DNA of 64,000 bases from Schmidtea polychroa (Eukaryota). Position numbers and translations under genes: made by a program. Where the stretch lies: positions 30,382,001-30,446,000 of the forward strand of contig CM097885.1 of NCBI GenBank assembly GCA_044892525.1, read 5' to 3'. A model generated the notes under the pieces. It made no database searches and was not told the DNA's origin. It was given only the letters and a program-made list of their open reading frames with translations. Shown here piece after piece: positions 13,252 through 49,887 of this stretch. Position 1 is the stretch's first letter, and each line of letters begins with the position of its first letter.

Positions 13252-13571
13252 ATTCGTGCATTCTACAAACATATACTCGGCATTTCTATTTGATATACTG
13301 ATCTAGAAAAAGAATACTATCAGTTTTTCCCTGGTTCGGAATTCCTATAGAAAAGGATGTTTTGACAATGCTTCTCTATCAAACGTTTTCTATTCAAATA
13401 TCAGAATTTGGACCGACAGAAACTCACTAGTACTACTCACAGAAGAAAATAAATCTGAATATGTTAAATTAGTTTGTCAAGAGAAAATGATTGGAGCTAT
13501 TCACCAACAACTTCATAGTTTTCTCGAAGGGTTTTACGAAATCATACCCAAAAATTTGATCTCCATTTTTC
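13252..13571 (+). pseudogene. HECT E3 ubiquitin ligase (HUWE1/Tom1-like) fragment
   Basis: Translates as IRAFYKHILGISI*YTDLE...[10 protein letters not shown]...[44 protein letters not shown], with a stop and frameshifts. Confidence 0.85.
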
Positions 13572-13814
13572 TTCTTCACCATCCCTTAATCTACCCCTCT
13601 CCCGTTTTCCAGCTTCAATTTCGATAACTTTTCACTTTATTCCACTTCCTCCGGTTTGCGCATTTTCCCATTTCATCTCTGATTGTACCCTTTTATAGTT
13701 CTGTTTTTATCATATCTTTCTTTGCCATTGCTTCTCTGCTTGACCGCCATTCAATTTCGGCTTTCCTTTTAATCTGAACTATATAATTTAATAATTTATT
13801 TTCAAATCTCAACA
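13570..13814 (-). repeat. Truncated copy (5'-most 245 bp) of the element A LTR
   Basis: Near-identical to 11732-11976. Confidence 0.92.
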
Positions 13815-13915
13815 GAATAAATATTACAATGTTTTTTCTAATAAAAAACGTTTACAAAATTTATTTACTTATTTATTAAATAAGTTAATTTATTATGAAA
13901 AATTAATATAAAAAC

Positions 13916-14714
13916 CTAATTTAACCAAATATGCTGGTTTAATTCTTCAAAATTGATTCTTTTTTCCGGGGAATAAATAAGACATTTTTTCATTAATTCT
14001 TTTGCCCTATCAGAACATTTTTTAAATATAACTGGTTTAAAGTCTTCATAATCTTTCATGGTTGAATATGGCCTTTTTGATTCTAAACAACTGTAAACTA
14101 AACTTCCAAACATGAAAACCAGATTCTTTTTGACATAATAATTAACGGCTTTGAAAGTTTCTGGACCGCAGTATCCAGTCGTGCCAAGCTTTTTCTTACA
14201 CATTGGATGCGGGTTGATATTATCATACAGAGTCCTCGAAATCAATTATTTTTATTCGATAATTAATTTTGTTAAAAAATATATTTCGCGGTTTTATATG
14301 ACGATGGTAAATTCCTTTTCTTACAAGTTCCTGTAATACTATTAAAACGTTTTTCAATATTCTTTTTATACATTTCTCTAATCTTTTTTTTCGAACATAA
14401 GAATATAATTCAATCCAGTTGCCAGTCAAATGTTCCATAACTATTGAAAATTCGGTGTCGTTTTGAAAATAATTGAGAATTTTTGGACAAATTTTATTGT
14501 TATTGATTAAATTGATAAAATGCATTTCTTTAGGAATGGGAAATGGATAATTATCATTTTTAATGAATAAATATTTTAAATTTTTGTAAAAGGATTTTAT
14601 GACCACAGTTTTAACTTTTGATTTAGTTGCATCTCGATTTTCTGCAATTGTTACTTTTCCTTTGACAGTCGATTGTAACACTTTTACAAATTTATAATCA
14701 TTTTCTGAACACAT
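13916..14714 (-). pseudogene. Intronless PIM-like Ser/Thr kinase, frameshifted
   Basis: VVIKSF, IPKEMHF, GIYHRHIKPRNIF (HRD->HRH), IIDFE, GTTGYCGPE, CLIYSPEKRINFEELNQHIWL, split over ORFs 14223-14714 and 13916-14245. Confidence 0.8.
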
Positions 14715-15073
14715 ATTTCTTCACTTTTAATTAATTGTTAAAATAAAATTATAAATAGAGAATTTTTTTTAATTAAATTAATTATAATAAATTTAATTTG
14801 TCAAAATAAATATTAATAGGTGATCAAATTTTCAATCGAGTTATCAATGTCTTTCTAGATTTACTAGACAAGATAATAAATTTCTAATATGGACACTCTA
14901 AAAACATCTGGTGTTTAATAAATGTTATCATAAGTAAATTTGATCAATTATAGATAGAGCACACTGACTCAATTGGGTATGATTCGTTGATCTGATCGGA
15001 CTTTATCAGACTACAAGGTGATGGATCATATTCTTTGTTCTACAGTCTGTCAATAACGTCATGTCAAGGTCTT

Positions 15074-17037: not shown

Positions 17038-19930
17038 TTAAAGTTCTTGTTTCGATTTGCATTCATTTGTAGACGGAGCAGTTGCGATATGCATTTGACG
17101 AATCTTATAGTGACCGTAGGCATAGCTTTCATTAGAATTGAACCAATACCTTTTATCATCCAAACATTGGAGAGCTCGTTTTTCTGTAATGAAAGTATAC
17201 AACTGATGATTAACACTTCCTATTCTCTTTTGTTGGATGCTCACTGTTCCACCATCAGTATACACTTTTTTATAGGCTTCATGGGTGATATTAGAATTTG
17301 TAAGACTTATTCCTTTGGCTTTTAGAGTGTTTTTATCTCCTTGGAGTGAGTAGCACTTGGGTCGAAGAAACACCCATTCTTTATATTGATTTCCTTTATT
17401 CTCATCCTTGAATTTCCCGATTACCGAACAAATTTTATCTGAGAACAATGGATCAGTCACCGGATAATTTGAAGTATCTAGGAGCCCATCGGCAATCATT
17501 TTTGGATACAGTTGTAAGCGTAAATCAACATTTTTACACTCTAAAAAGAAGGAATCTGTGTCACCGGCTACGATATTAATTTGACAATTGAATTCTTCTC
17601 TATAACTCTGTAGTTCTTTATATTGAAACTGGTACATGCGAAGTTTAGATAAATCAAGTACGGTTTGTCCAATATACATTGGTCTATCTAAACACACCAT
17701 TTCCTTATCAAGTATAACAGCAATGAGATCATCCGCAATCTTGATGCTACGACGAAACATAGGATTACTACAATAAGTTATCAATCTTTTGCTTTTGCTG
17801 CATAATCTCAAATTTATACGTTTCTTAAGGTTTTCCACGGTTTTACCGTATAAACTATTGTTCTTTAACTTATAATAATCTCGCTGAAATGAATCTGTAC
17901 TAGCTGCTCTCATTTGAGTATTGTAATCAATATAGCGTTTGAAAATAGCTACTTGCTTGAATTCTACAGCACGATTAACTTTTGTGACTTTTGCGCCGTA
18001 ACTCAACCACTCTGTCAAAACTCTACCATTAACTACATAGTTTTTCTTAGGCTCATGAGTTAACAACAGCTTTTCAACTTTACTACCAGGTGGATAACAA
18101 AGCTCAGGAGCTATAGGTAAATCATCTAGCTTATCTTGTATACTATCAGGAATGACGATGTCAACCTCTAGAACATATCCACGATCTCCATCAAACTCAT
18201 CCCCATTTGCACATCTTTCAACAATACCATTCATTTCAGTCTGATCATTTATCCATCTAAATTCACCAATAGGAAGTTTTTGCGACAGCGCCCATCCATA
18301 TAAATTATTAACATCTAGGTATGACATTTGTGTTGATTCATCAGCTTCAACATGATGTTTGTTGATAAATGTCATTCCACCACGAATACCAGCTTCAAAT
18401 AAAAGGTAAAGCTCTGGATCTTGAATAAGTTCTACCGGTTCAGGTAACTGTTTAATAGCTGATGCCCAACTTAATCCGGGTATGGAAACAAACGATAAAG
18501 CCTCAAGTCCATCTTCGTCAAATGTTTTTTCTCTGAAAGCTTCAAAAACATCGGCCAACACAAAAACATCCAACTTGAGATATACTAGCATGTAATCTAG
18601 CAATGTCTCACAGTTATATTGTCGCCAGATTTGATTTGCATGTATATAATCTTCTTGACTAACTCCCTCCCAAATCGATGGTAATTCTGTTATTGACTGT
18701 AAAACATCCATTGACGTAGCAATATCATAAGGAAATATGCCTTTACCAGTTATTAGATGCGAATTGAAAATCTTTGAAGTAAGTGGAAGACGTGGCAAGT
18801 TTTTTGATAAATTTGCCAAGCTGCTATTTAAAAATTGTAAAGAATCAATGAATCTAATTCTTCTGCCTTTCGATGTCGCTGTAAGTGTGAGAAACTTTTC
18901 TGTTGATTGAGGAATAACAATTAAATTCCAATCTGGGAATTTTCCAATTGCATATTTTAATATATGATGAATGTCATATCCACGAAGATTATGAAATACA
19001 ACAGGTAAAGACGGATTGATTCTTCTAGCCAAATTACAATCTTGACACGCTGCTCCGAGATATTGACCAGTAAAATGATCATGATCTCGAACAGGTATAT
19101 TGATAATCTTTTTACAAAGGTAGCAATGAGTTTGAGTCGTGAATTCTTCCTGCTCTTCCCAAGTGAGTTCCATCATTTCCTTTGATCCATTAATTTTATA
19201 CCACGGATAAACTATGTCTGTAGCTATATCATCCAATGCTTGTATGAACTGAATGATACAGTTTTTCCCAACAAATGTTTCATTTCGGATCGGACAACCT
19301 TGATGGAGAAGCACAAATTCAGATGCAATCGGCTCATGTTTTTGGAAGTGTTTGTCATCTAGAGGTAATATCGATTCAAAGTCCGTGTAGACAACAAACT
19401 GCTGTTTTATAGTTTTACTCCAATCTTTAAATTCGATATATTTATTCTCTGGCATTGAGTATAGAGTCGTACGCTCCACATTCTTCCTACAAAGACCTAT
19501 ATGTCTTTCAAAAGCAGGACGTTTTTGAAACCCATGAAGACACGTATGACACCAATGTGATTGGATTCTGACTCCTTCTACTCTATCTCTGTAATTCAGC
19601 AGTCGATCGAGATTAGTTACAGCCAAAAAATGATAATTTAATTCTAAATTTAGTTAATATTTTTAATGATTAAAGGAAATATTACCTTCTTCAATCAATA
19701 GGAGATATATCTGAGATCCCGTCGAAGTACTTCTATATACCAAGTCAATGAACGGATTCTTGAAAATATCATTAGTTTTTTGTTTAATTGGATCTTTATT
19801 ATATTTGAGAACATTGATCGCTAGATTTGGATTAATTGCTTCAAATTGGCAAATGTTAACCAACTTCATCGGAAACCATTCAAATTTCCATTTTAAGTCT
19901 TAAAAACAAAATTCAATGATTTATGACATT

Positions 19931-30455: not shown

Positions 30456-30510
<55 letters not shown>

Positions 30511-31174
30511 TCTTCACCGATTAACAACTTTTAATATGAAAAAACCGAGGTTACTCAATGTATTATTTACAAGTTTAAAAAAATTTAACAGTTTTATAAA
30601 TCTAAAGATGTATGTACTAAATGTATTAAATTATATTGGACTCATTTGTTTGCTGTGCAAATGCAAAGCGAATTAATTCCAATGAATCAGTAAAGTGAAA
30701 TTATTTTGCTCATTTTAAACGTAGTAAAACATCGTTAAATGGCCTCTACAATTTTTAAATAGGTTAATGCATAAATAACACATGAAATGAAAATACTTAA
30801 AATATAAAATTGAATGTTAAAAATTTTATAATCAAATATATATATATAGTATATTTATGAGGGCATTTAGTCATTTTATCAACAGGGATTCTACAACATT
30901 TTATTATTGGTTTTAAATTACTGAAATTTGAATTTATTAATTTTTTAAAGCACATGAAACTTTCAATTATACATTTATAATGAGTCCATTTCAGTAATAA
31001 TTAATAAAACGACTACTATATATAGAAATTTAACCTACTTTTGTAATTTAACCTTTACCCAGAATTTACTACTCATCCCTTTATGTAATACATGTGCATC
31101 TTACATAATATGTGTTTAAATTTGTTAACGACTCGTTTAAAACTGGTTAAGTAAATTATTATTTGTAAAAAGTT

Positions 31175-34100
31175 ATGCTCCTTAGTAAGTTTATTTTTAA
31201 TGGTTATTTATTTTAAATTAAATTAGATCGAAAATTTATTACAAATTTATACTGTTATAAAGGTTACTTTAAATTATTGTGCTCTTTTGATATTCCGTTT
31301 AATATGCATAAGCATTCTCAGATTGTTATTTTATCAAAATATTACAATACGAAAATAAGCAGTCATAAAAATGAAGTAGAAAAAATGAATTATTTAGCAA
31401 ATGAATTGTGTAGGCCTTATGAAATTTTATTAAATTCTTTATCTCATAACTGGACTATTCCTCCGGTGCCGGAGCAATTTTGCTATTGTGAAGGTTGGAC
31501 CAAATATGACAAAAAAAATTCTTTTCACAAAGTTTCGTTTCCTGACGAAGATGTTATGATATTTGACATTGAAGTAATTGTGAAAGAAGGTAATTGGCCA
31601 TCAATTGCTGTGTGTTTGGGAAAAAATTCTTGGTATAGTTGGGTGTCAAATCGTCTGATTAAACCAGATAATGTGAACGGGAATATTATTTATTCTGATG
31701 AATTAATACCACTTTTTGATAATAAAGATAGAAATGGTTTTCGTTGTGTAATTGGACATTTTGTTTCGTACGACAGAGCAAGAGTTGCAAATGAATATGT
31801 TAATCAGGTAATGTTAAAAATAGAATGATTTATATAAACTTTGGGAATTTTTAAAAAGTATTTTTTAGATATTTATAAATTTTAAAAGTTAATAAAAAAT
31901 GAAAAGAATAAATATCACCATAAATGTCTAGTAATATTTTTAAATGTATATTTAGTTAACAATTTCTTTACAATACTTATTTCAAATAATTTTGATTTGC
32001 CATACATAAAGTCTAATATCTATATGCCCTAATATATATTGATATTTTCTATAATACATAGTTGCCATAGTTAAGATTAGGTTTTATTGAATTCTAATGG
32101 TTGATGTCATTTTATTCTCATTAATTCTTTACACTTCGTGCAAGTAGGTCAAATCTTTGTTTTTAGAGAATTTCATGATAAAAATTTTATACACTTTCAA
32201 TAATTAATACTCATTTTTGAAGTAAGAATTAAATTAAAAATTTGTGATAATTTTGTTTAGAGTTCAAACACCAGATATGTTGATACCATGTCAATGCATA
32301 TTGCCATTTCTGGCATGACCACGAGTTTACGGCAAAGATACAAAACATCTGGAAATTTGAAGGTAGTTATGAAAATGGTATTATTTAGAAAACAAACATT
32401 TTTCATAGTGGAAAAAAGTCACTAGTGGAAATAGTCTGGTGGATGTATATTCTCTTTATTTACCCAATAAAAAACCACCACAAAATAAAGACAAAAGAAA
32501 TATTTTTGTTAATGGATCTTCTTCTGATATTATTAATAATTTTCAAGATTTGATGAAATATTGTGCAAATGATGTTCTAATGACAGCTGAAGTTTTTCAA
32601 AAAATTTTCCCTATATTTCAGAACAGGTTAGTTAAAATTTATTTATTGAAAGGATATTTATATTATTCAAAAATAGATTATTGCATTTAAATTACAAAAT
32701 TTAAATAACTCATTTTATTTGTCATTTTCTTAAACAAATTTGGAGGCAAATATGAATGTATTTCTATATAGGATGGAATTTTGTAGAGTTTGCCATTTAA
32801 AATAAAAATAACTGGGATACATATTATTATGGTTTTAAGTTACCAAAGGTTGGTTTTATATTAAATCAAAAATTGAATAAAATAATAGTTATTATTCTTC
32901 GTTGTTTGATAATACCATTAGAAAGCTCACAAGGAGAATTGGAATATAAAATAAAATTGATTTGAAAACTTTCAATAGACTATTGGGAATGGCAGAAATG
33001 TTCACTGGGAGATTTCCAACAAAAATATTAATATATTTTGCTAGTCTGATAAGCAGACAATCCATTTGAATGAGGATGAGGATTATGTAGCTTAAAATTA
33101 TAAAATAGTAACTGAAAGTAAAATTATACATTTCAAAACAATTTACGCAGTTATTACAACACCAGCGTAACACGTCGAAAAATCATCGGTTTAAATACAT
33201 TCAACATGCTGTAAGTAGCTGTTATTATTAATTATTAATATTAATTAATATTAAAAAATTATTTTAGATTATTAATTTTTATTACTTTATTATTATTAAT
33301 TATTAAAATTATTATTAATAAATTTTTTTTACATTATCATTATTATTTATTTTAATTATAATTATTATTAATTAATATTAAAAAATTATTTTAAATTATT
33401 ATTTATTATAATTGTTATTAATTATTATTAATAAATTTTTTTTACATTTTTAATTTTTATTACTTAATTATCATTATTATTATGATTATGATTATTATTA
33501 TTATGATTATTATATTATTATTATTCATTATTATTAATAAATTATTTTACATTATTAATTTTTGATTAAATAATTAAACATACATGGCAATGATTTAATT
33601 ATAAGAAAATGCTAATCAAACATTCTTTTCGGGTTATATTTTGACAGATTTTCTGCCATCATTAGGTAGGATATAATAACTATAAATTAAGGATTTTTAA
33701 ACAAATTTATTGATTGTATTAATTATATAAAAAAAATTTTAATAAAAAGATTTCATTCTTTTAAAAAATATAATTAAATTAAAATATTATTTTTTTAATT
33801 TTAACATTTAGAATTTAATTTAATAATTTTACAATCGATACAAAAAATTATTTAAAAAAATTTAAAACACAAGTATTCACTGCATTCTGCACATTAATTT
33901 TCAGATTCAATGATTTTATCAATAACGCCTCACAAATTATACGTTCCCAATAATTATCGAAATTTTTATAATCAGACATTCCTATTATAAGACTCTTACA
34001 GTCAATGCATTCGGTCTATAATGCTCTCGAGCTCGAATACAGAGATGACGGGAAGTCTCTCCAATGTATGTGGCATTACACCCATTACATGTAAACTGAT

Positions 34101-37100
34101 AAATTAAATCGGAACACAATTCGACCGGAGTTTTTGACTTATTAATAAACATATTACGTATTTTCCATGAAGTTGACACTATCCTATAGTCTAAATTCCC
34201 TAACTGCTTTCTTACCTTCCTTTTATAATCCTTTAAACCTTCTTAGTACGGCAATAATAACACAAATTTAGACTTGCTCACACTATTTAATTTACTTAAC
34301 TCATCAGACTCACACACCTCAACTAAATCCCACCCAGATTTTCTCAAACATGGATTTATTAATTTATTTATTATTAAATGGATTTTTAATAAATTTGTCA
34401 ACAGTCTCTTACCATAATTAATAAAAGGTATTTTGAATAACCGTTCTCCATTAACAATTCGACCAATTTGTCAACACTTTTTACTGAATTTTCAAAAGTA
34501 TAGGACAAAGACCATGAACGATAAATCAAGAGAAATATAAGAGAAATATGGTGAATTGGTTGATTTATCGTTAATGGTCTTTGTGAATTCAGTAATAAAT
34601 ATCAGCATAAATTAAGTAATTTAACAAATCAAGCATTAGTTACGAAACACAAAATTAAACTTTCTCAACACAATTTAATACCAGCGTAATATTAACATAA
34701 TAATTATTATTATTAAATTATTTATGATTTCTATATAATTTTGTCCAAACAGGCACTTTAAAATCGATATAGTTTCTTGATTTTTATCGGATGATGACAA
34801 TGAATCTGTCGAAATATATTATGTAATTGATAATAGAATGAGATTTTTTGGTAATTATTATTATTTATTATTATTATTATTATTAATCATCACAAAAAAT
34901 TAAATATAAATCGAAATTATAAATTTTTCAAATGAAATTCCGAATAAAATGATACAAGATACCTTAAAATTAGATGAGATTGATTTAAGTTACGACACGT
35001 TATGCACCACCTGGTTTCCAAATCCAGAATATTGTTTTGTCTTTTGTAATAACATATTATATGTTACCATCTGCAAGAGTCAGTTCACCTTTATTTGATA
35101 TCAATAACATCATTCGGTCAGAATTATCCCAATTTTCTCCATGTGACTAAATAATAAAATTCCAAGCTTATTGTTTTTTTTACAATTTTCAAAGTAACCA
35201 TATCAAGCCTGGTAGTGTATAGAATATACCAAAAATTGTAAATTATTTTTCTATCAGCCTTGTATAAAAGATAAGTAACCATTCAAATAATGTTATTAAA
35301 CATTTATATACCAATAAACCCAATCGAAGCTTCATGATTGTTACTTATTATTATCATGTCTTAATATATCATCACAAATTCCGCAGTTTTTAAGTGATTT
35401 TCTTTTTTTTATCAATTTTCTTTAGATTTCCTCATAAATCTGTCCTTTATGGCATGTTAGAATTGAACTCTCTATACTTACCGACGAATAATAAGTGGTT
35501 TCAGTTTTTAAATCAGACAAATAATGATTTTGACAACTTTGGTTCAAATTACCAAAAAAATATTCTTATGAAAGCCGCTAACGTAGGATTGGCAATCGGA
35601 AAAGATGGCAAGTAAAAAAAGGTCACTGATGATTAAAATTAACAAAATAACTAGTTACAAAAACGATCCATGGCTATGGGATTTAAAATGGACTAAACAT
35701 TTACCTATTTGGTATAAAGATTTAATTCCCAAGAATTCATCAGGAAACGCAAACAGTTGTGAACCTTCATTAATAAATAGTACTATGGGCATAGCTGTAA
35801 AATTGTTAAGATTGCGATGGGATGGATTGCCTTTGTATTATGATAAAACATACAGATGGGGTATTATAAAACCATGCAAAACTCTAAAAAGTGATAATGA
35901 TATCATAATTACGATGCCTGAAAATTTTCCAAAAAGGTAATAAATCAGGAACGTTATAATAATGATAATATTTAGAGAATATTTTAAAGATTACGACCAA
36001 CCCCATGACTTAGAGGTAAGTATAAGTTTATTGTTTATTAACTTTATTAATATTTCATTGAAATTGCAAATGGGTATCAAATTGAAAGATTTGAATGATT
36101 TTCTAATTAATAATATAAGGGAAGCCCATTTGTTACAAACATTACAAACTAGTAGTTGATGACATAGTAAAAATTACTAAACATTTACCAACTAACTAAA
36201 ATCAGCATTGTAAGGAACTCAAACAAATAAAATCATATACATATCCAATTTGATCTTGTTTTATTTTTCCATCTCCAAATTTCAGCAACCGTTCAGCAAG
36301 TAAACCAGCATTAAGGTCTTCTGATAATCCAGCTGACTAGATACAATAGATATAATTAATAGCAGGAGTACCATTGATATGTTGGGCTTATGATCCAAAT
36401 AAACCTGGCATGTATTCGAGACCATTGAGGTAAAGTCTCAAAATTTTGCAGAGCTGAAGGGCTTATTACCAAACGCATGTTTGATAAATTTGAATATTCT
36501 ATCTTTACTATGTTCTGAGATATTTAATTTTTATTTTTGTACAAACTACTGGTTGATTTATATTTTGTTGATAAAATAATTTTATTGATATAATAATTTT
36601 ATTGATATAATGTTATTGATATAATAATAATTGATATTATAATAATAATCATATACTCGCCTTATTTAACATTTCAACAGATAATTGAGTTTTAAAGGGA
36701 TTAAATTAATTTTGAAACCCTGTAAATATAACATTTTATATAATAATTTACATACCATATAATAAATGAACAAAGTTTATTTTAGCAATATTATATTAAA
36801 TTTCATATATGTATAAATGTATTGATTAAGCTTAAATTGTAATGCTTGCAAAACGTTCGATGATTATTGCAGTCTTTAACACATAGCATGTGCGCAAATT
36901 GATAAAACGGAATGGAAAAATAGGAAATGTTTGTGTTGTGTAATTAGGAAATCCCCTATGTTATCTGTTTTGGGTTTACCTATTAAGTTTCAAATGAATC
37001 AATTGATTTAGCAATTGGCAAAGAAAGCAGAAAAGTCCAAAATCTAAAACGAAAGGTGGACATGCTCTGATTGTAGAATAAATAAAAACAATTTTTAATG

Positions 37101-40100
37101 ATATTTATTGAGGTTTGTATAAAATAAGCTCAAATTAAGTTGGAATGTGCAAAACATTAAATAAGTAATAAATAATAATTTAAAACATTAAATAATCAAT
37201 AAAATATGCAAAAAGAAATTTGAAAAAAATCAAAGTTACTTATTCCGGGGGAAATTGGTATGTACGGATAGCGAACGTTTATACGAAAACAGATATAATA
37301 ACATGAAAAAAGATATTACCCAGAAAAATATTTTTAACGAATACAAAATAATTTTAAAAAATGAATAATTTATTAGACATGTAGAAAACGCGACACAAGT
37401 GCGAAGTCCGAGCGGTAGACAAGTGGATAATATAATTAGGCTTATTTTCAAAATTATTAGTTTTACATTAGGAAAACGAGATCTGTGAACAAAGGCCATT
37501 ATTCTGTTTTTCGAAATTTTAGTCGATGCTAATTTAATTGTGCAGGTAAGCAGGATGAGTAGCAATTTTTGGGAAAAGGCCAGTTGGTCGAAGAGTGCTT
37601 TTGATTTTTATTAAAGAGTGTAAATAAGAACTTTGTTCTGGGTTTTATCTTGCTAACTGAGACAAAGAGCACGAGGAGTCAGAATCAGTACCGACTTTAA
37701 CAGTAATAATCCAACATTTATTATTAAATTATAGGTTACACAAATTAATTAAAAATCAATCAATATTTTCAGTGGGAAAGCTGGAAACAGTTTCTAAATT
37801 ATGATTTAATCTCATACTTTTACATTGATGGCGGCTCCTTAAGAAAAAGGAATATAAACATTCAAACATATTAATTTTAAAATTAATGACCTAATTAATC
37901 ATTAAAACAAAACTTGATTTTAACAATCAGGTAGAATAGAGTAAAATACCATAAGCGCACATTTTATCTGTCAAGGTCATATTATGTAATATATCAAGGT
38001 CATTTAAGGGTCAAAATTGAGGGTCATACTTGATTTGGTGTCATTTAAGGGTTGTTAGGGTAAGTTAAATGATGGTTGAAGGGACACATTTAGGTAGATT
38101 TAAGTTCATTTAATTGTGGGAAATGATGGGTTTAAGGGTAAAATAGGTTGCGTAAACGTCAAAATTTAAAGATAATAATGACCTTGACATATTATATAAT
38201 ATGACCTTGAAATCAAATTACACTCAGATGACCTTAACTGTGGGTATGTGGTTTAGTTCGCTCATAGAATCCTGCTACCAGGAATTAGTAATGCTAGATA
38301 AGAAAAATTACATGGGATTAGGGCATCATACTTCCAAAAAAAGAAATTACCCGAAATAATCGATATGATAAATCTCTTATAAAAGCAAGGCGTATTTATA
38401 GATATTTACCATTTCTAAATCGAAAATTAAAATAGACGATACAAGTTTTAATTCTGAAGTTATTTTCCAGCTAAATTTGATTTAGTATTTTCTTTCCTGA
38501 CAAAGTAGAGTGCAATTTCGAATTCGAAAATTATTAAGGCAATGTTATATGTCAATTAAGCTTTCAATTTATTGAGTTCTTCTTTAATCGATACAGAACA
38601 TGAGTTAATATTCGTTCCAATGAGGCTTTATTAAACCTAACATAACGATATTTATAACAATGTTTTTTTACCGTATGATTATTTTTTCCATTGAATTTAT
38701 TTAAAAAAAGAGATTTTGAAGACTATAAATCAGTAATATATCGATGTTTGTTATTAATTGAGGTGGAGGATTCGATAAAGAATTTTGTGCTTGAAATTTC
38801 TCCGATTAATCTTCGGAAGAATTTGCCGGGTAAAAATCGATTTTTTGTCTTAGAATCCGTTGACATCCAAATCACTTTCTCGTGTTATATTTCTTTTCAT
38901 TTAGCTTTGTAATTGTAATCTTTAATTCAATCACTTTCCCAGGTTATATTTCTTCTCCTTTAACTTTGTAATTGTTAATTTTTAATTCTTTTCTTATTGA
39001 TTTTTTTTTGAATTTGTAATTTCTCTATAGTAAATTATTACTATAGAGAATTACTCTATATAGTTCCTTTTATTGGTCTACTAAAAATACGTCCCGGATA
39101 AAAATAACGATTGTAAATCGTAATTTCAATTAAAAAATTACAGTCAATAAATTAACGCTACACTACAGGTGACATAGTTCCAGAATCTAGATAGATATGT
39201 CCCAGTCAGATATAGGTCAAAACCCTTAGAAAAAGTAAGTCTATTTAAAATTTAGTTGATTGAAATTAGCGGTTAACGTTTGCCAGAATTTGTGTATTTG
39301 TCCGTAAAGATAAAACCTTGTTATTTGTTAGGTTGTGTCATAGAATACAAGAAAGCTCTGAACCGAAGTTTCTAAAATACAACAAAATTTAGAAAATATA
39401 TGTAAGGCAAAAATGACAATTTAAATATATTTTTATGGATTCTTTTTTGCATTATATTGATAAATATTTTAATATCGATTTACTTTAGAAATATTAGATT
39501 AATATTTAATTAAATATTTCGTTAGGATAGTTCACTTACATACTTAAAAGTTTTCATTTCAGACAAATACATTTATCTTCAAGCCAATGGTTCATAAAGT
39601 AATAGTTACCAAGTATTATTTCTTTATTTTCAATTACAAAACAGGATGGCTTTGGCAAATACGTCAATCGAGTTCTTTCAATTGATATAATTTCTAACTT
39701 GCCCGCCAATAGACTAACCTCAGATTCGAATATCGGCAAAGAATTTTTACAATCAATTGGCACTTGTCTATTTTGGAAATCAAATGGAAATTTAATCAAG
39801 TAAAATCTTATTCCATAGCCATTATAGAAATGTTTCAGAAATCAAATGATTGTTAAATTGAATCGAAAGGCAACGAGCAATGAAATGGCAATCATTCCAT
39901 TAGTTATTCCAATTAGCAATGCCTATCGGAAAATTGACGAAAAGCTATGGTTTAATAATTTTTATTTAACCAATCAAATTGGTGGAGAATACAAATCCAT
40001 GATAATGGCACCTCATAATTATGTGTTTGTTGGTCATACATTACATAATATACTTGATTGGATAATTGGTATTTGTGGTGACTCAATTCAAGGTGAACTT

Positions 40101-43100
40101 GGTAAGTAATATTTAATTATTGGTTTTTATTTATATATTGGGTCATCTATAATCATTATAATTCTATAATTATAATTCATGGATTGGCCTCAAATTAACG
40201 ATTAACTCAGGTGCAGGTTATCTTAAGAATTATATAACTTGTGTAAGTGTTAAGCTACATCATTATTATTATTATTATTATTTTACTATTTATTATCAAT
40301 ATTCATTATAATTAATAATTATTGTTATGAACTTTATGGGCCAGCTTTTTAACTTAATATAGCGAGAATAAAAAAATATCGTTATTTTCTCGAATAATAA
40401 TAAATGAGTTGAAATAAAAACTAATCAATTATATCTATTGATCTATTTAAAATAAAGCTAATGCTTAATTTATACTGTATTTTTAGTTTTAGTGTCCTCT
40501 ATTTTTCCTAAGGTTTCCATTTCTAATTTGTGTTTTGTTGGCTAATAATATACTTGTTATTATTAATTGCATTGCTAAAGAATAAAATTTTAAAATTAAG
40601 CGCCTGCACTGAATATTACATTTGCAAGACTCTTATCCAATGTTTGGTAGTTAATGGGATCGAATTGCCATAAGAAATTTAATCTATTATTAAGTTAGCC
40701 AATTGACGACTATTTGATTTCAATTAGGGTTCGTTTTGGAAATGTGTAAGGTTCGTAAGTGGGTTATACGATTAACACACAAAATAATAACGCAACACGA
40801 CTTTTGTATCAAATAGTTTATTTATAAGTACAAATATGATTTAAACACACAAGTTAAAATAACAATAAAACGGGTTACCCAAAAAGGTGTCGCCAACAGC
40901 AAAAGAAAAGATATCTGAAGTGAATTGAATAATACGTTTAAATTCAAAGATCTATTCTTTAAAAACATTTGTTTATTTAAACAATTTTAATAATCCTCCT
41001 CTAGAGCCCATTCTCCCAGTCTTTGCGGAGGTCTACGAATTCGATTGATCTTTCGAAGCTCGTTTTGAGGGGCAATGGGTGTAACTTCTTCTGTCTGATA
41101 GTCGTTAATGTATGGCGTTTCATCTAGTGATAACGGAATTTCATTATCCATTGTTTCATTTAGCCCCTTTGGAGATAGTTGGTTGTTAGTTGCTAATTTC
41201 ATGATCGGGTTGTAGTCATCTTCTGAGATGATCCATGATGAATTCCTGCCATTTGGCAAGAGAAGAGTCTGACAAGAGGTGTCATTAGTTAAGCCAGATT
41301 TGTAGTCCACAACTTCGCCTTGTTGGAATTGAGGTATTATCGGTCTGCGTAGTAGTCTCCCAAAAATCATTTCTGATGGGACTTACCTTCAAAATCAGCA
41401 GATATCCGATGAATGAATAGCATCTTTTGAAGAAACTCGTCAAATTCAGTATGGCATTGACTTACCTTCAACATTTTATACCTCTTTTGATGGTTTGAAC
41501 TGCTCGTTCAGCTCTGCCATTTGCCATTAGGAAGTATGGCGGAGATTCCATTTTACGGGCTCTCTATGGTTCTCTAACTAAGACATCAATTCTTTTGATG
41601 TGAACTCCGGTGCGTTATTCGTTACGACATTCAGGGATACCGAAACGCGTAAACATTGTTCTCACACATTTGATAATGTCGGATGTGGTCCTCTCTTTCG
41701 TTCTAAAGGCTTCAATCCAACCCGAACCCGAGTCAACTATAATTAGAATGTTGCCAATCTCCTTGGCGTATGCCCAGTCAAGATGTTCTCGTTCGAACGG
41801 CTTAGCATCGGGCCATCGATGAACTTTTTTGATTGGATTTGGTCGGATTTTCGAGCACATTGAATAATTTTTTACAAATTTCTCAATGTCGTTTGTCATA
41901 CCTGGCCACCATGCCACCGAACTCACCATTCTGTAAGAAGTTTGCACTCCATTGTGGGTTTCCTTGTGGATTAAATTAAAAGTATTTTCACGAAGTCTCT
42001 CGGGAATAAACACTCTAGTGCTATTATACAGAATTTTACAGACTTTTATAATTTTTTTTAAATTGTGCTTTAAATTGACTGCATTTTGACCATCTTCACT
42101 CGTTGCATAATTCCTATCAACCGTTCATCAATCTCAAGTTCATTTATAATTTCTTTTGGATCTAAAACATTACAAAATGTGACGTTGTAAATTTGTGGAG
42201 CATTCATCGTGTCGAAATCAACATTTGCCTGCATTTTTGAATTGAAATCTTGACATGGCATCCGCTTGTGGGATCTGTGCTCCCGGAATATTATATGTTA
42301 TATCATAGTCGTATTTCATCAGTTTTATTGCCCATTTTGTTACCCGCGCTGAGACTTGTTCTGGGATTGCCCTGTCACTTCCAAATAAATATTTCAACGG
42401 ATAATGATCGGTCTGAATTAAGAATTTTCTTCCTAGAAGGAAATGACTCAACCTGGTTACAGTCCATACAACAGCTAAGGCTTCTCTTTCTATGTTTGAA
42501 TAATTACGTTCTGCTTGGCTCAGAGTTCGGGAAAAATAAATCACAGGATGACTTTCTTGAGTTGGAACTGCTCCGACGGCATTCAAGGATGCGTCTGTCG
42601 TCAGAGTCACTTCTTTTTCAAGGGAGTACGGTTTCACTACCGGATGATCAGATAATTCCTTCTTTAGTTCGAAACTTTCCTGACATTTCTCCGTCCAAAC
42701 GAAAATACTATCTTTTTTTCTCAGGCTGTTCAAAGATGCAATTTTGTCCGAGTATTTGGGAATGAGTCTACCAAAATAATTTGTTGGTCCGATAAAGCTT
42801 TCTACTTCTTTCCTATTCGTAGGAACAATGATGTCTTGTAATTTTCTTACTATTTTATTATCCGGCTGAATACCTCGACTAGATATATTTAACCCTAAAA
42901 ACGTAATTTCATCGACGTATTCAATTGACTTTTCTTTGTTTACGGTGATTTTCTTTTCTTTTATGCATTCCTTGACTGCGTCTAACCGTTTTTTACGAAA
43001 CATCATGGTCTCCAAAAACCAGAACTTCATCTTGGTATATAAGAATACCTTTTATATCTGATAAAATTTCCTCCATGGTTCTTTCAAATATCGCCGAAGC

Positions 43101-45623
43101 ATTTTTCATGCCCATCTGCAGGCGATTTACATAATATAAACCTTTTGAAATATTAATAATTGATAGTTGTCGGGCCTCTTTAGGCCGATTTTAGGTCTAC
43201 TTTGGCACAACGTTTTTTACATTACATTCCGTCTTGAATTTCTGGTTTATATGAACTTTGAAATTCACACACATCCTTAAATCTGATTCTCTTTTTTATC
43301 CATACTACGGGAGAACAATTCATTACTGGATCTTTGCATTGTGAGATGACTCCCATTTCCTCAATCGTGATAATTCCTCGTTAATTCTTGTTTCCATTGC
43401 CAACGGTACGGTTCTTGCCTCACAGAATACATTCCTGTCCTCTTTTATTGGTATCATTGTGACTTGAATTCCTTTGATTGTTGGAAGAAATGTACTCTTC
43501 ATCGTGACATTGTGATTGCTAGTTTCTGCTTCTAAAAGATCTTTGCATAAAAGACCATATATTTTATCTGATTCAAAAACCGCTAATATTATGACCTGAC
43601 GCCTGGTTTTAGTTTCTACATCAGCAAGAAACTGACCTCGGCACACCATCGTATGCTGACAATTTGACTTGCGAATGGGTTAACTGAGGTTTACTAATAT
43701 TCTCCAAAATCCTGGACGATATTATGGACACATCTGCACCCGTATCAACCTGCATAAGCACCTCATGCGAGTTTATTTGGCAATTTACTAGCTCCTTTCT
43801 ACACGAATGAATTGCGATGATTGTTCCAATATCTGAGTTTATGCTTTCTTGATCCATAACGTGAATACTCGGTTTATTTGATCTACTTGATGATCTACAT
43901 ACTCCAGCAAAATGATTTAGTTTCCCACATTTGCTACAATTTTTCCCACAATGCTTACATTTCTCTTTTGGAATAAATTCTTTTCGTGAATAAAATGTAT
44001 TCATATTTTGCTCATCTTCATTTGCTTTCTCGAAGTTTGCAGTGAATATCTTGACTTGTTCAATGTCTTGTATGATCTCTTGAATATGTTCCACCTATAC
44101 TTCGCCGTGTCCTATTTGTTCAGGAAGGTATAATTTCGCCTTGTCGTCATAAAGATCGGCTGTAACTGACATTCTTCTACTGGATCTTTTGATTCTCTCA
44201 GTTTCTCGAACTCACAGAATTGTGAGCCTTTCCGAAATCGTACAATGAAATCTGAAATATTTTCCGATTTTTCTTGTTTTATCTTGAAATATCTGCGTCT
44301 TTCTCCTACAACCAACCTTGATTGCGGATGTAAGTATTTCCTTATTGCTGATTCGATTTCTTCATATCTGATCGTTTGAATTGTTCTTGGGGATAGAATG
44401 GATCGGATTTTGTTAAGGGCCTCGAACCCACATAAAGCCATGAAGTTGTCTGTAATTGATAATTTTGTTTCGGAATCCGTCCATTGGTTTATCCTAATTA
44501 TCGCATTGAATGTGACTAGCCACGTTTCGCATTGGTCTGCATTTGTTAAATCCATAGGTGGTAATCCTGCTTGTGACGCCATTGAAGTGAATTGAATAAT
44601 ACGTTTTAATTCCAAAAATCTATTCTTTAAAAACATCTGTTTATTTAAACAATTTTAATAATATTAATTTCTTAATATTATTTCAATATCGGTTATAAAA
44701 AAACAGTCCTCAGATTCTTCTAAGACAGTAAATGCAGGATCCTAATTGATCAACAGCACCACTCAACAATGATAGTGAAAAGACGAGCGTTACCCGAATT
44801 TTACCACGATCGATTACTGCCAAGATATTTGGCAGTAACGTTATCCTAGATGATCTACCCTCTTCTATTTAATACTCTGAAAAATTCGCGCAATTCAGTA
44901 AACTGTTGCTAATATTATAAACCCTGCTCGAACTGTTACAACGTTGTCTATCAAATATATGACAATCCCTGTTGCTGTTTCCGCAAGATGGCTTTTGTAA
45001 TACGATTTTCTTTTAATTGGTATTGTAACGATAAAACGTCATTACCTTGAATATACGAATGCTCTGTAATTTTCCGTATTTTTTAGAATCTGTCAACAGT
45101 GACTGTTTATCTTTCCTCTTTTTCGAATTGTAATGACTATATATAATAACGTCATAATTCCATAATATTGTATAATTTCCAAACAAATTTTCAGCGTTGA
45201 ATAAAATATTTTAAAAAACCATTTATTAAAATTTTGATATTCAAAATATATTTATTTAAAAATGATTTACTAATAAAAAGCTTTTTTAATTTTTCAATTT
45301 AAAAATTATTTTAAAAGTTATTTTAAATAGTCAATTATTTATCATTTAAAATTATCTTAATAAATCATTGAAATATTTAATTCTCAGTTGAAAACACCTC
45401 ACAATATATATGTTTTCCCGGGATCTACAAAAACTTCAATAAATATTTGCTTATCGTTCTATTATCAATCTGATTATTTCCGGCTATTAAATCCAATTAT
45501 CAAAGTCTATTCTGGTTAATTGTTCTAGCTGCTTGTAATTCTAGCTTCATATTACAAATCTATGTCCTTTTTTATCATAATTTGAAACTTAAAATAAAAT
45601 AAATTTTACTTTTTAAAATTATT

Positions 45624-45705
<82 letters not shown>

Positions 45706-46273
45706 AATAATTATAAATATCATTAATAAATAATAATAATAAACTTTTATTTGTAAATTACTATTTATATTTGTTCTTTATATATGAATTGCTATTTATA
45801 GTTATATTCTATTTAAATATTACTATTTTTGGTAACATGATTACTAAATATAAATTCACTAATTTCTTATTCTGTACCATTTTCTTATTTTATTATTTAA
45901 TTCCTAAACACACACACGCACACAGTCCAACGAACTCTGATCCAACCCTAACAAATTTATTCCTGGTTTGCATTACTTTGAAAATCCAATTAAATGTTTT
46001 AATTTCAACAGATATTTCATTTTAGCATAAATAGCAATTGTAAATGTATTTTTGTAGGTGCTTCTCTGTTTGGTAAAGAAGTATTAAATGCTGGTTTAAA
46101 CAATTTATTGGGATTCAATTCTACACTTTATTCTAATCTAGCAAAAATTACGAAAATAGAAAGAAATATTTTTCGTCGTTTAGTTTTAATTTTAATCGAT
46201 GGAGGGGACAAAGAAGATATAATGCATTTTTTAATGAAAAATGCATCTTACAGCGTAATTTTATTTCTTATTG

Positions 46274-46348
<75 letters not shown>

Positions 46349-46472
46349 TATAAATAAAAATAATTATAAATAATATCATTAATAAATAATAATAATAATA
46401 AAATATAATAAAAAATATAATAATAATAATAATTAATTATAATAAATAATTATAATAATGATAATAATAATG

Positions 46473-46560
<88 letters not shown>

Positions 46561-46586
46561 AAATGAATGATAATAATAATTAAATA

Positions 46587-46627
<41 letters not shown>

Positions 46628-47648
46628 ATTTTATTAATTTTTATCAATTTCTGAGTATTAAAAAATAATTAAGTTTTAATTTATTATTTCAATTACAAAT
46701 AATGTTTTTCTTCTATTTATCATTAAATTGGTATTGAATTGCCAATGGTGGAATCATTTGTTGAAATATAATCAGGACTTATTTTGGATCGAAATATTTC
46801 ATTTTATGAATAAACATTGAGAATTATGGCTTACATCGTTATTAGTCTGAATTATATATTTTTTAAAATTGATGTAGTTAATATTATTAATAATAATGAC
46901 TTTTCACAGATAAGTGATTCGAAAAATTATGCCGACGAATATTTCCTGAAATTAAAAGGTGAAAAGATTGATAAAATTTGGAAAAATGGAATTTTATCAG
47001 ATTTCTTTAACGTTGTGTGTAACGTAATTAACTCTGGTGACTTGAAAACTCCATTTTTGAATTCCGAATTCTCTAAACCCCTTAGGATATCGAGCAGTAA
47101 AGAAGTTCGTTATAGCTTTATTGTGTAATATATGCAATCGGGATAAATTATATTTCAGTTAATGCAATGCTTCTTGAAATCAAGCATCGCAGATTATATC
47201 AACAGCCTTATTGTACACACTAAAGCATTAATATGTGAAATGAAGTTAAATTCGAGATTAAGCATCTGCAATAAGAATGAAATCAGATTTCTTTGTCATG
47301 AGAGTGATATGTACAAAATGGCTTACGCTTTACATCGCGCTGATTCTACTACTAAAATCGCATTTGCTTCACTTTTATCTCTTAGAAATGTGCCTTCAGT
47401 AAGGGGATTTTATCTGGCTTGCATATTATGTAATATTGCTAGGAATTTAGATTTTTAGACGGTGTAGATATCGATGAGTGCTGGAGAATGAATCCCATGG
47501 ATGATTTCGGCTCGGAATCTGGCCGTGGCATTTATCATAATTATGGAATTAAACCTGGTGGAATCTGATTTTATCAAATACATATTTTTATATAAATTTA
47601 GGTTTCTCACTCAATTTCGATGATTTGGCAGCAGAGCTTAAGATTTGA
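31175..47648 (+). CDS. POLG: Mitochondrial DNA polymerase gamma catalytic-subunit-like gene, 15 exons, ~888 aa; exonuclease motifs intact, polymerase motifs degenerate
   Basis: Exons 31175-31184, 31227-31807, 32261-32362, 32409-32626, 35426-35611, 35655-35936, 35976-36015, 39563-39598, 39645-39799, 39839-40101, 46058-46254, 46910-47104 (donor could be 47122), 47159-47398, 47443-47557, 47602-47648; all GT-AG and phase-consistent. POLG signatures: EGWTKY, IFDIEV, IGHFVSYDRARV, VDTMSMHIAISG, LMKYCANDV, RFPHKSVLYGMLE, YKNDPWLWDLKW, LRLRWDGLPL, GVDIDECWR. Confidence 0.9.
33880..34330 (-). pseudogene. Penelope-like element 3' fragment (GIY-YIG endonuclease) in POLG intron 4
   Basis: LIYQFTCNGCNATYIGETSRHLCIRAREH, followed by ERIICEALLIKSLNLKINVQ. 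Confidence 0.85.
37971..38210. repeat. 34-bp inverted repeats built from TCAAGGTCA motifs (foldback/MITE-like)
   Basis: 37971-38004 versus the reverse complement of 38177-38210, two mismatches. Confidence 0.7.
40916..44660 (-). mobile_element. Degenerate full-length Ty3/Gypsy (Mag-like) retrotransposon C with ~77-bp LTRs in POLG intron 10
   Basis: LTRs 40916-40992 and 44583-44660; PBS-like TGGCGTCAC; PPT AGAGGAGG; flanks ATATC/ATATT. Fragments of gag (CSKCGKLNHFAGVC), PR (VDTGADVS), RT (LQMGMK, IYQDE), RNase H (LTTDAS, YSNIEREAL) and IN (HLDWA, ESPPY, RIRRPPQRL). Confidence 0.9.
45626..45700. repeat. (TAA)n microsatellite
   Basis: Directly visible. Confidence 0.95.
46277..46625. repeat. Compound (TAA)n/(TTA)n low-complexity tract in POLG intron 11
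   Basis: Directly visible. Confidence 0.9.
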
Positions 47649-48367
47649 TGTTTTTCAGTCAAATGTTTATTTAAAATTTTGGAATTGTTTTCATTAATAA
47701 ATTTTTTCATGTTTTTATTAACCAATTTACGATTTCCCCTGATATCAATGAAGGTATTTTCTTTTCATCGCGCTTAGTTCCTTTGCAAACAGATAAGGTA
47801 ATGAAATTATCAACAAATTTTTAATATAAAAACAACTATGGTGTTGGAGCAGTTTATCTATTGTTTGATGTTCATTCTGTAAACTCTCGTTCCACTGTGA
47901 CTTAAGACCTTTAAGGATGTTGACGCGCCTTAGTGCCCTGAATAAGTCTATTGTTCATATTACGATATCATATTCGCAATATGTAATTCGAGGGACAAAG
48001 GAGCGCAACAGGCAGGTCGTTACAGCTGAGATCATAGCATTAAACATTATGGCTCTTCTCACGGAAGTTCAATAAGCAAAGTTAGGCGAGCATATAAAAT
48101 AATAAACTTAACTGCTCTATAAAATCGTAAAATAAGGAATGTTACGGTGACATTTAATAATAGACATAGAAATTAACAAGTTCAAAAGCTGAAATGATTT
48201 TAAAGAACAAGCGAGTAGGTCATCGAAAGCCAGGCCGGGTCCTCTGTAATTACAAACTGATATATTTTTTAAAAAACATTTGTTTTAGTTATCATATTAT
48301 TACTTATGAAATTCCATGATACATAAAAAACTTAAATTTTTAAAATCATTTAATTATATAATAATGC

Positions 48368-49887
48368 TGTTGGTTACTTAGGGGTGTATCATTTTTAATC
48401 ATAATCGTTCGACTCTTTCCTAAGCACCTCCATGACTATTGCAATTTAAACCATTTGTGTACCCATGGTGACGACCATGTTGGTCCTGTACACAAAGGTG
48501 AAAAAACAATGAGCAGGTGAGCTCCATTACTAAAACTACTCCCCATTGTATTTTCTTTTCGGGTTCTAGACTGCCGATAGAAGGTCTTACGTCATTAGTC
48601 ACTGTGTGCTACTTTTGGATCGTTGTTGGTCCTCAATTACGGGTATTTCTAATTGTTCTCTTATAAAATTTTGTGCAGGGATCCGCCCTTATTTTCCAGC
48701 TACTAATTATTGTTCTACACTTCCTACAATATCTAAATTATCCTTTGAAAAATTTGAGCAGGGATTGGCCCTTATTTTCAAGTTAATCCACGCTTCCCAT
48801 AATATTTACGTTATACTTCAAAAAATTTGAGCAGGGATCTGCCTGTATTCTCAGTCCTAACCTACATTTGACCACAGTACTTCCAGCGATAGGACCCGTG
48901 AGGAAGCCCCCACATTCCGGCCCAATCCAGCTGCGCGATTGAAAAACCAGCATACCCACCAGTCTGAGCATCCCGAAGGTACCTCAAACCATGATATGCT
49001 GAATCTCAATTCAGCGGTACTAACGTTCGTAATCAGTTAGTATAAAAATTGAACACAATAAAAATTATTATTTAATATCTGCAACTAAATGAAATTAAAC
49101 AATTAAAAGAAAATAACAAAAGAAAATTTAACTAAAAATTTTATTGCATATTAAATTTAATCATCTCATAAAATTACTACAACAATAAAAAATAAATTAC
49201 CAAATCCACGTGGGCATAAAATCGAAAACTGAGAGCTTCACTGGCTACAACTAAATTTTGATGTTAGAGAAAAAGTAGTCCCTTTAAATGAATTGGTGAT
49301 CAGTATTTATACTGATTTTTCATGCATTTGCTGCCACTCTATCCAATCAGAGTGCGAGAAATTTTTAATTAGTCTTGCATACATGCATGAGTGTGTGCAA
49401 TTGTTTATTTGTTTTAATTCAATAAATTTAATTAATTTCTTATTTAATTTTTATTAATTTTAATTTTATAAATTTTATAATTTAAATAATTTGAGTTATA
49501 TTAATTTTTATTAATTTAAACATTTTTATTCTTTAAATTTAATAAGTTAAATAACCATTTAATTCTATAAACTTTACAATTTATATAATGCTAACCAATT
49601 TTATTATTTTTGACGATTTAATTTTTATATTGTTTAAATAATTTTCAACTAATTCTATTTTATATTTTATTATTTTTCTATTTTAATTTTTAAGTGTTGA
49701 ATTTTTTGTTAAATTTATTTATCTCTTATTCTATTATACGGGGTTTATTGGTTCTTAATGTGTGATGTAATTTATTTCATTTATTTTAAATTAAACCTTG
49801 GTCATAAATTTTTCAACTTTGCGGTTTTTGTGTTAGGTATTTTCGATCGATTAAAACAAACTCTCAGTTCTCGGCTTCAGCCCAACA
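48368..49887 (-). repeat. 3' LTR of element D (1520 bp)
   Basis: Direct repeat of 60555-62097; I see one substitution and one 23-bp indel. Confidence 0.95.

Follow-up and report, generated by a model that had tools for sequence, protein, structure and literature searches.

An apparently conserved, polymerase-dead and exonuclease-intact POLG paralog in the planarian Schmidtea polychroa

The window analysed here, a stretch of 64,000 nucleotides from the planarian Schmidtea polychroa (assembly GCA_044892525.1, contig CM097885.1, positions 30,382,001 to 30,446,000 of the forward strand), contains at positions 31175-47648 of its plus strand a 15-exon gene for a protein resembling the mitochondrial DNA polymerase POLG. 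Judged by its alignment and residues, the window protein is POLG by descent and fails all residue tests for an active family A DNA polymerase. It is a real, conserved and apparently undescribed POLG paralog with a dead polymerase site and intact exonuclease residues. POLG has been regarded as a gene present once per genome, with two activities that can be told apart only in engineered mutants; a natural exonuclease-only copy would separate them. The readings in which a polymerase-dead protein is maintained are, taken together, very probable. Among them, we give roughly even credence to the proposal that the gene product is a stand-alone 3'-5' exonuclease of mitochondria, where it would degrade or trim the ends of mitochondrial DNA (mtDNA).

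Exonuclease residues kept and polymerase residues lost

The POLG exonuclease family PF18136 is recognised in exons 2 and 4 (E = 5e-40 and 5e-21, respectively), whereas PF00476 finds no match at E<=1 in any of six exon pieces taken from the polymerase region. Residues were compared with those of up to 49 intact POLG rows of an alignment; where human numbers are given, those of D274, Q1102 and H1134 follow PMC4773887. The five catalytic positions of the exonuclease, D117, E119, D186, Y282 and D286, each present in 49/49 intact rows, are all kept, which bears out the preliminary description of this DNA with regard to the acidic residues. The window protein has the ExoI Asp/Glu, ExoII Asp and ExoIII Tyr/Asp residues of a DnaQ-like DEDDy 3'-5' exonuclease.

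Family A polymerases need both catalytic aspartates. The motif A aspartate (human D890), which is Asp in 46/46 intact rows, is replaced by Thr604, and the His-Asp pair of motif C (human H1134 and D1135), present in 42/42 intact rows, by Lys794-Asn795; the Thr and Asn codons lie at 40038-40040 and 47276-47278, exactly where they had been placed from the sequence beforehand. In motif B, the Arg is kept, the Lys has become Arg, one Tyr has become Leu and another Asp. Changes are also seen at the equivalents of human E895, H932, K947, Y951, Y955, N1098, W1099 and Q1102, so that most residues that bind dNTP are gone; in the intact enzymes, E895, H932, K947, Y951, Y955, Q1102, H1134 and both aspartates are each conserved in 33-46 of 42-47 rows. 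The equivalents of human R943, R852 and E1136 are retained, and an Asp stands six residues past the lost motif A aspartate. Consistently, the window protein keeps 32/35 near-invariant columns in the exonuclease and 11/11 in the linker but only 40/88 in the polymerase domain, whereas an intact copy in the same genome keeps 34/35 in the exonuclease and 83/87 in the polymerase domain.

The words GAD.D, HDE, NY.R.YG and DSQE are absent from all six-frame pieces of at least 10 amino acids in window positions 24000-49500. Over the same interval, motif A and motif C profiles match exons 10 and 13 only (E = 8e-7 and 8e-14, respectively), and a motif B profile has no significant match at the locus (E = 3.1). 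Since there are no intact motif words and the profiles match only these two exons, alternative exons cannot restore catalysis. The preliminary description had named exons that bring back the motif A and C aspartates as one finding that would overturn it, and none was found in this interval.

An intact POLG copy and the age of the duplication

Queried with PF18136 and a fluke POLG, the genome yields only two POLG loci. The second is the catalytically intact copy whose existence the preliminary description had proposed to check: it lies on the minus strand at C1:30642648-30625731 (L012, L013), 196 kb past the end of the dead gene and tail to tail with it. Its spliced product has at least 1054 amino acids, with the start and possibly one short exon uncertain. 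The exonuclease residues are all intact in it, as are the three polymerase motifs A, B and C. Nine of its 11 introns lie at the same alignment column and in the same phase as introns of the dead copy, and a tenth lies within four columns. Because these intron positions are common to the copies, a duplication at the DNA level is confirmed, and most splice sites of the dead copy, including those of exons 11-15, gain independent support.

The protein P0001 (UniParc UPI00060BC37E), from another species, is an ortholog of the dead copy, with 83% identity over exon 2 and the same replacement in motif A, and P0092 is an ortholog of the intact copy (84%). The annotated P0001 model is flawed, in that residues 1-140 derive from a high-copy repeat and the model ends with exon 10, at the large intron; this mis-annotation masks the real shape of the gene. 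A mixture-model tree was built for the N-terminal half from 34/57 rows, retained for run time; in it, the dead pair and the intact pair are sisters (support 97/90) and adjoin flukes and a tapeworm (100/100). The window protein groups inside POLG with flatworm POLGs, and its POLG-specific spacer and polymerase-domain sequence are collinear with theirs in the alignment. From this tree, the duplication is taken to be younger than the split from the parasitic flatworms. It is old, since the branches since the duplication amount to 0.7-1.0 changes per site (0.89+0.13 for the dead copy versus 0.72+0.08 for its sister in the N-terminal half). P0001 and P0092 were the only close relatives found by three word-based searches and among the best 150 of 1069 matches of an HMMER search that the repeat-derived part of P0001 had diluted.

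Rates of change and renewed constraint

With a fluke as the outgroup, 38 exonuclease changes are unique to the dead copy and 31 to the intact copy (chi2 0.7), whereas in the polymerase domain 123 are unique to the dead copy and only 28 to the intact one (chi2 60). A fish outgroup gives 21 versus 26 for the exonuclease and 141 versus 22 for the polymerase domain, and the polymerase-domain branch measures 3.0 changes per site in the dead copy versus 0.66 in the intact copy. Between the dead copy and P0001, 128/151 residues are identical in residues 474-624 (85%) and 209/242 in the exonuclease (86%); in the same regions, the intact copy and P0092 share 83/98 and 111/125 residues.

When change was simulated as neutral at 0.3 substitutions per site, the lowest value given for a pair of Schmidtea species (PMC11410931), the expected identity of residues 474-624 is 52%, well below the observed value, and 0/300 runs stay free of stops. 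A neutral identity of 85% would require a distance of just 0.05-0.08 substitutions per site, at which the essential replicase would therefore be neutral too. These comparisons of sequence indicate that the polymerase domain went through one burst of change that removed catalysis and then came under renewed constraint, with the exonuclease changing at a normal rate, and that the gene is not a decaying pseudogene. The preliminary description had preferred a maintained pseudo-polymerase to a decaying pseudogene, and the intact second POLG, the ortholog with the same dead motif A, the normal exonuclease rate and a polymerase domain first stripped and then conserved all agree with it.

Gene model

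Splice-site testing of region 30500-48500 joined the 15 exons into 888 codons with zero internal stops, in agreement with the exon count and coordinates of the preliminary description. All 14 introns are GT-AG, and neither frame breaks nor lost splice sites, the marks of a pseudogene, occur in the model. Stops make up 8.2% of triplets in the intron DNA of the locus, which gives P ~4e-16 for 415 open codons by chance, an overstated figure since the splice sites were chosen by the analyst. Splice signals and reading frame are the sole guide to the N-terminal ~45 residues and to the junction between exons 7 and 8. Extra exon candidates at 36366-36429, 39332-39401 and 46776-46837 were dropped because each breaks the frame. 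The aligned protein is shorter than other POLGs by ~150 spacer residues, and profile searches of the locus found no exons bringing back the missing spacer (best E 4.8) and no upstream exon bringing back the N-terminal domain (best E 1.3).

Table 1. Features of the POLG-like gene in the window
Feature	Position in window	Strand	Remarks
Exon 1, start codon	31175..31184	+	ATG; least certain exon; a 42-nt GT-AG intron takes out an in-frame stop
Exon 2, ExoI and ExoII behind a basic N-terminal stretch that may be a targeting peptide	31227..31807	+	PF18136; 83% identity to P0001
ExoI motif	31562..31573	+	D117 and E119 intact (catalytic residues 31565-31573)
ExoII motif	31754..31783	+	D186 intact (codon 31772-31774)
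Exon 3, exonuclease domain	32261..32362	+	Both flanking introns common to the intact paralog
Exon 4, ExoIII	32409..32626	+	PF18136; ExoIII at 32559-32576; Y282 and D286 intact (32559-32573)
Exon 5, exonuclease end and N-terminal thumb helix	35426..35611	+	
Exon 6, spacer core	35655..35936	+	Without accessory-subunit segment
Exon 7, short spacer remnant	35976..36015	+	
Exon 8	39563..39598	+	
Exon 9, second spacer part and thumb	39645..39799	+	
Exon 10, eroded pre-A motif and dead motif A	39839..40101	+	Motif A 40029-40061; Thr604 40038-40040; same Thr in P0001
Broken Gypsy-type long terminal repeat (LTR) retroelement in intron 10	40937..44662	-	Antisense to the gene, outside the protein; 58-nt direct repeats, 93% identical
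Exon 11, eroded motif B	46058..46254	+	Motif B 46162-46203
Exon 12, fingers	46910..47104	+	
Exon 13, dead motif C	47159..47398	+	Motif C 47264-47290; Lys794 and Asn795 at 47273-47278
Exon 14, C-terminal palm	47443..47557	+	
Exon 15, stop codon	47602..47648	+	

Predicted structure and the accessory-subunit segment

An AlphaFold model of P0001, built from a 64-row POLG alignment, gives confident predictions for the exonuclease, the thumb and the core of the spacer, with a predicted local distance difference test (pLDDT) score of mostly 85-98 over the exonuclease domain. Its best structural matches are POLG (E = 3e-43), although the model leans on the POLG alignment and is not independent proof. 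The phmmer matches are POLG chains only (14 sequences). A protein atlas search with the dead region gave top scores of 0.87, below threshold, and structure rows with uninformative template modelling (TM) scores of 0.26-0.35.

The AID segment, which binds the accessory subunit, has 4 residues in the dead copy and 8 in the intact copy, compared with 18-19 in flukes and tapeworms and 44-91 in most insect, mite and fish rows (60-91 in the named ones). Because both planarian copies are without the binding segment, titration of an accessory subunit by the dead copy appears unlikely. Nematode enzymes also do without this segment (PMC4419789), and flatworm POLG may act as a single subunit, as in nematodes. 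Anticodon-binding-domain matches in the genome (n=6) resemble tRNA synthetases by eye, and no accessory-subunit gene was recognised among them.

Similar proteins in other lineages

Motif A is covered in 101 of 138 POLG-like rows and has its Asp in 90 of these 101. Among the 11 rows that lack it, one is a misaligned fragment and five are Varroa entries; the others are the window protein, P0001, Strigamia T1IMT7, Ambispora CAG8476501 and P0089. Each of the four other dead lineages retains the five catalytic positions of the exonuclease, namely the centipede Strigamia (T1IMT7, P0073), the mites Varroa destructor and V. jacobsoni (XP_022662160 group, P0055, cluster P0171-P0174), the fungus Ambispora (CAG8476501, P0124) and P0089. 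Like the window protein, these records have intact exonuclease positions and have lost the motif A aspartate; unlike it, they are less eroded, are annotated simply as POLG and have independent origins. The Varroa row retains motif C, and the three animal records also have a short accessory-binding segment (28, 35 and 23 residues).

In the tree of the N-terminal half, Strigamia stands with a millipede POLG (97/90), Ambispora with another fungal row (100/99) and Varroa, in a loose grouping, with a mite (91/97); P0089 could not be placed. An approximately unbiased (AU) test rejects a single origin of the five animal dead rows (p-AU 0.0005). The grouping of dead copies in a tree of the polymerase domain is taken as long-branch attraction, since the N-half tree separates them and the AU test rejects one clade. 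Derived residues shared by the dead copies are few (9/69 with P0089). A protein atlas search with P0089 confirmed it as POLG and gave nothing further. The metagenome POLG-like protein P0129 has a long insertion within motif B that looks intein-like by eye.

These records make recurrence in other lineages a lead, given that single records may carry annotation errors. That at least four other lineages show the same pattern of loss suggests that this solution recurs, and it is a warning that an entry named POLG in a database need not be a polymerase.

Proposed function and its alternatives

The residue pattern leads to a plausible mechanism, in which an old duplicate of the POLG catalytic subunit has become an exonuclease-only enzyme while the neighbouring intact copy would replicate and proofread mtDNA. 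The dead copy would be imported into mitochondria through its basic N-terminus, whose first 24 residues contain 4 K/R and 0 D/E. The retained thumb and spacer core may hold duplex DNA, with the dead palm and fingers serving as a scaffold, and the 3' end would be passed to the DEDDy site, where the intact residues point to activity. Digestion in the 3'-5' direction would then be continuous and could not be stopped by deoxynucleoside triphosphates (dNTPs), because no dNTP binding or extension would pull the end back to the polymerase site. In agreement with this, the exonuclease activity of polymerase-deficient human POLG is raised, H1134A being partly dominant negative (PMC4773887), and the clearing of linear mtDNA requires the POLG exonuclease (PMC5928156). 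The likely job would be the removal or trimming of free mtDNA ends, whether of linear or damaged molecules, of stalled products or as part of a programme that lowers mtDNA content in one cell type or another. A broader proposal, which we regard as tentative and rather doubtful, is that POLG duplication has occurred repeatedly in animals and fungi, each time with one copy becoming an exonuclease dedicated to destroying mtDNA. Such enzymes would form an undescribed class, concealed by the name POLG-like and possibly serving programmed mtDNA elimination or copy-number control in germ or stem cells.

Which exonuclease clears cut mtDNA, in turnover and in sperm, is still debated (PMC11914152, 10.64898/2026.03.19.713005), and RNA interference (RNAi) of each planarian POLG copy alone makes the question testable. 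A profile search with PF12705, the MGME1-type nuclease family, gave no genome candidate, which does not show absence. One EndoG/EXOG-like locus lies at C1:199.46-199.49 Mb.

Several points weigh against a maintained mitochondrial exonuclease of this kind. The N-terminus is the least secure part of the gene model, its hydrophobic moment is modest (0.48), and the aligned protein is without the N-terminal domain of other POLGs. An exon 13 query found no ortholog of exons 11-15 at E<=1 among 52 candidates, which is weak evidence. The constraint between species is measured at the amino-acid level over residues 474-624, which include motif A but not motifs B and C, and it is assumed both that P0001 and P0092 belong to one species and that the 0.3 distance applies. 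A role in sperm is made less likely by the fact that the removal of mtDNA from Drosophila sperm depends on POLG but not on its exonuclease (10.1101/086702).

The kept exonuclease and lost polymerase residues would equally fit a trans proofreader or end-trimmer, which would change places with the replicative POLG where primer ends are mismatched or flapped and yield higher fidelity or ligatable ends without bulk degradation. Exonuclease-deficient and polymerase-deficient POLG do complement each other in flies and in vitro, yet the polymerase-poor enzyme can be dominant-negative (PMC4773887). Moreover, the intact paralog needs no outside proofreader, since it retains all its own exonuclease catalytic residues, and its exonuclease domain evolves no faster. 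Degradation or trimming of mtDNA ends is favoured because the intact copy proofreads for itself, leaving trans-proofreading an unlikely though serious alternative.

Somewhat less probable is a nucleoid-binding regulator or recruiter that binds mtDNA and blocks replication or recruits another nuclease, its own exonuclease being secondary. Between species, the dead polymerase part shows as much conservation as the exonuclease, and POLG promotes mtDNA loss in fly spermatids without its exonuclease (10.1101/086702), both of which suit such a role. A non-catalytic role, however, would not demand that the five exonuclease positions be kept in both species and in four other dead lineages, and the accessory-subunit segment is missing from both copies.

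The exonuclease might also have been redirected to the nucleus or cytosol, or to RNA, a course taken by other exonucleases derived from family A polymerases (EXD and WRN types). The loss of the N-terminal domain, with a new N-terminus that is only predicted, leaves room for this, but that N-terminus is basic and without acidic residues, and the kept thumb, spacer core and full length of palm and fingers suit duplex DNA, so that redirection seems improbable. Very unlikely is a decaying pseudogene whose frame is still intact: the long polymerase-domain branch would fit decay, but not the 888 open codons with 14 canonical introns, the long divergence from the sister copy in the N-terminal half, the normal exonuclease rate or a dead region 85% identical to its ortholog. 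That the protein is still a polymerase, through the retained E1136 equivalent and the Asp beyond motif A or through other exons, is scarcely credible, since the two metal ligands have been replaced along with the steric-gate tyrosine and the residues that bind the triphosphate, and no alternative exon carries the motifs.

Neighbouring sequences

Mobile elements make up most of the remaining 64-kb window (open reading frame list, by eye). Amid them, at 13307-14720, lie a HECT-ligase-like fragment (+) and kinase-like fragments (-), also recognised by eye. Frames for a Polinton-type DNA polymerase B occur at window positions 729-4634 and 17038-19653 and at L016 2383-6380 and L015 6288-8393, highly similar copies standing upstream of the dead gene and again beside the intact POLG at its 3' end. 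The interval that separates the POLG copies has, by eye, transposons as well as kinase-like and BTB-Kelch-like exons (L029 4209-4541; L031 7318-7665, L032 151-486, L015 2136-2480). Two PF00476 loci on C2 (C2:2607822-2611532 and C2:126562112-126563215) look like Pol theta or Pol nu by eye, and the motif A aspartate is visible in both.

Comparison with known systems

The literature searched, largely without subscription journals or supplements, yielded no published natural polymerase-dead POLG paralog, and the main text of a 2015 survey of the animal replicase mentions neither a paralog nor Schmidtea, Strigamia or flatworms. Polymerase folds that have outlasted catalysis are known from other families, archaeal PolB2 and the C-terminal module of Pol epsilon being inactivated polymerase homologs. 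ImuB and iPolY, which belong to other polymerase families and serve as scaffolds, have likewise kept the fold beyond catalysis (PMC12926913). In bacterial family A enzymes, such as PolA2 and many Pol I proteins, the usual loss is that of the proofreading site, the reverse of what is seen in the window protein (PMC12926913). Trypanosoma brucei POLIB is a mitochondrial family A paralog with, by the title of its report, a dominant exonuclease activity (PMC9731263); compared by description, it is Pol I-like and is presented as a polymerase with an insertion rather than as one without catalytic aspartates.

The closest system is POLG itself (Tamas, Mip1; PF18136 and PF00476), with which the window protein shares the domain order, exonuclease motifs, thumb and spacer core. 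Unlike those of POLG, its motifs A, B and C are destroyed; it is also without the N-terminal domain and most of the spacer, and an intact copy is present in the same genome. Engineered polymerase-deficient POLG (human Q1102A and H1134A; fly Q1009A and H1038A; PMC4773887) is likewise polymerase-poor and exonuclease-proficient, as the window protein should be by its residues. Those enzymes, however, are laboratory point mutants, whereas the window gene is a natural, conserved and separate gene in which the whole polymerase active site has been remodelled.

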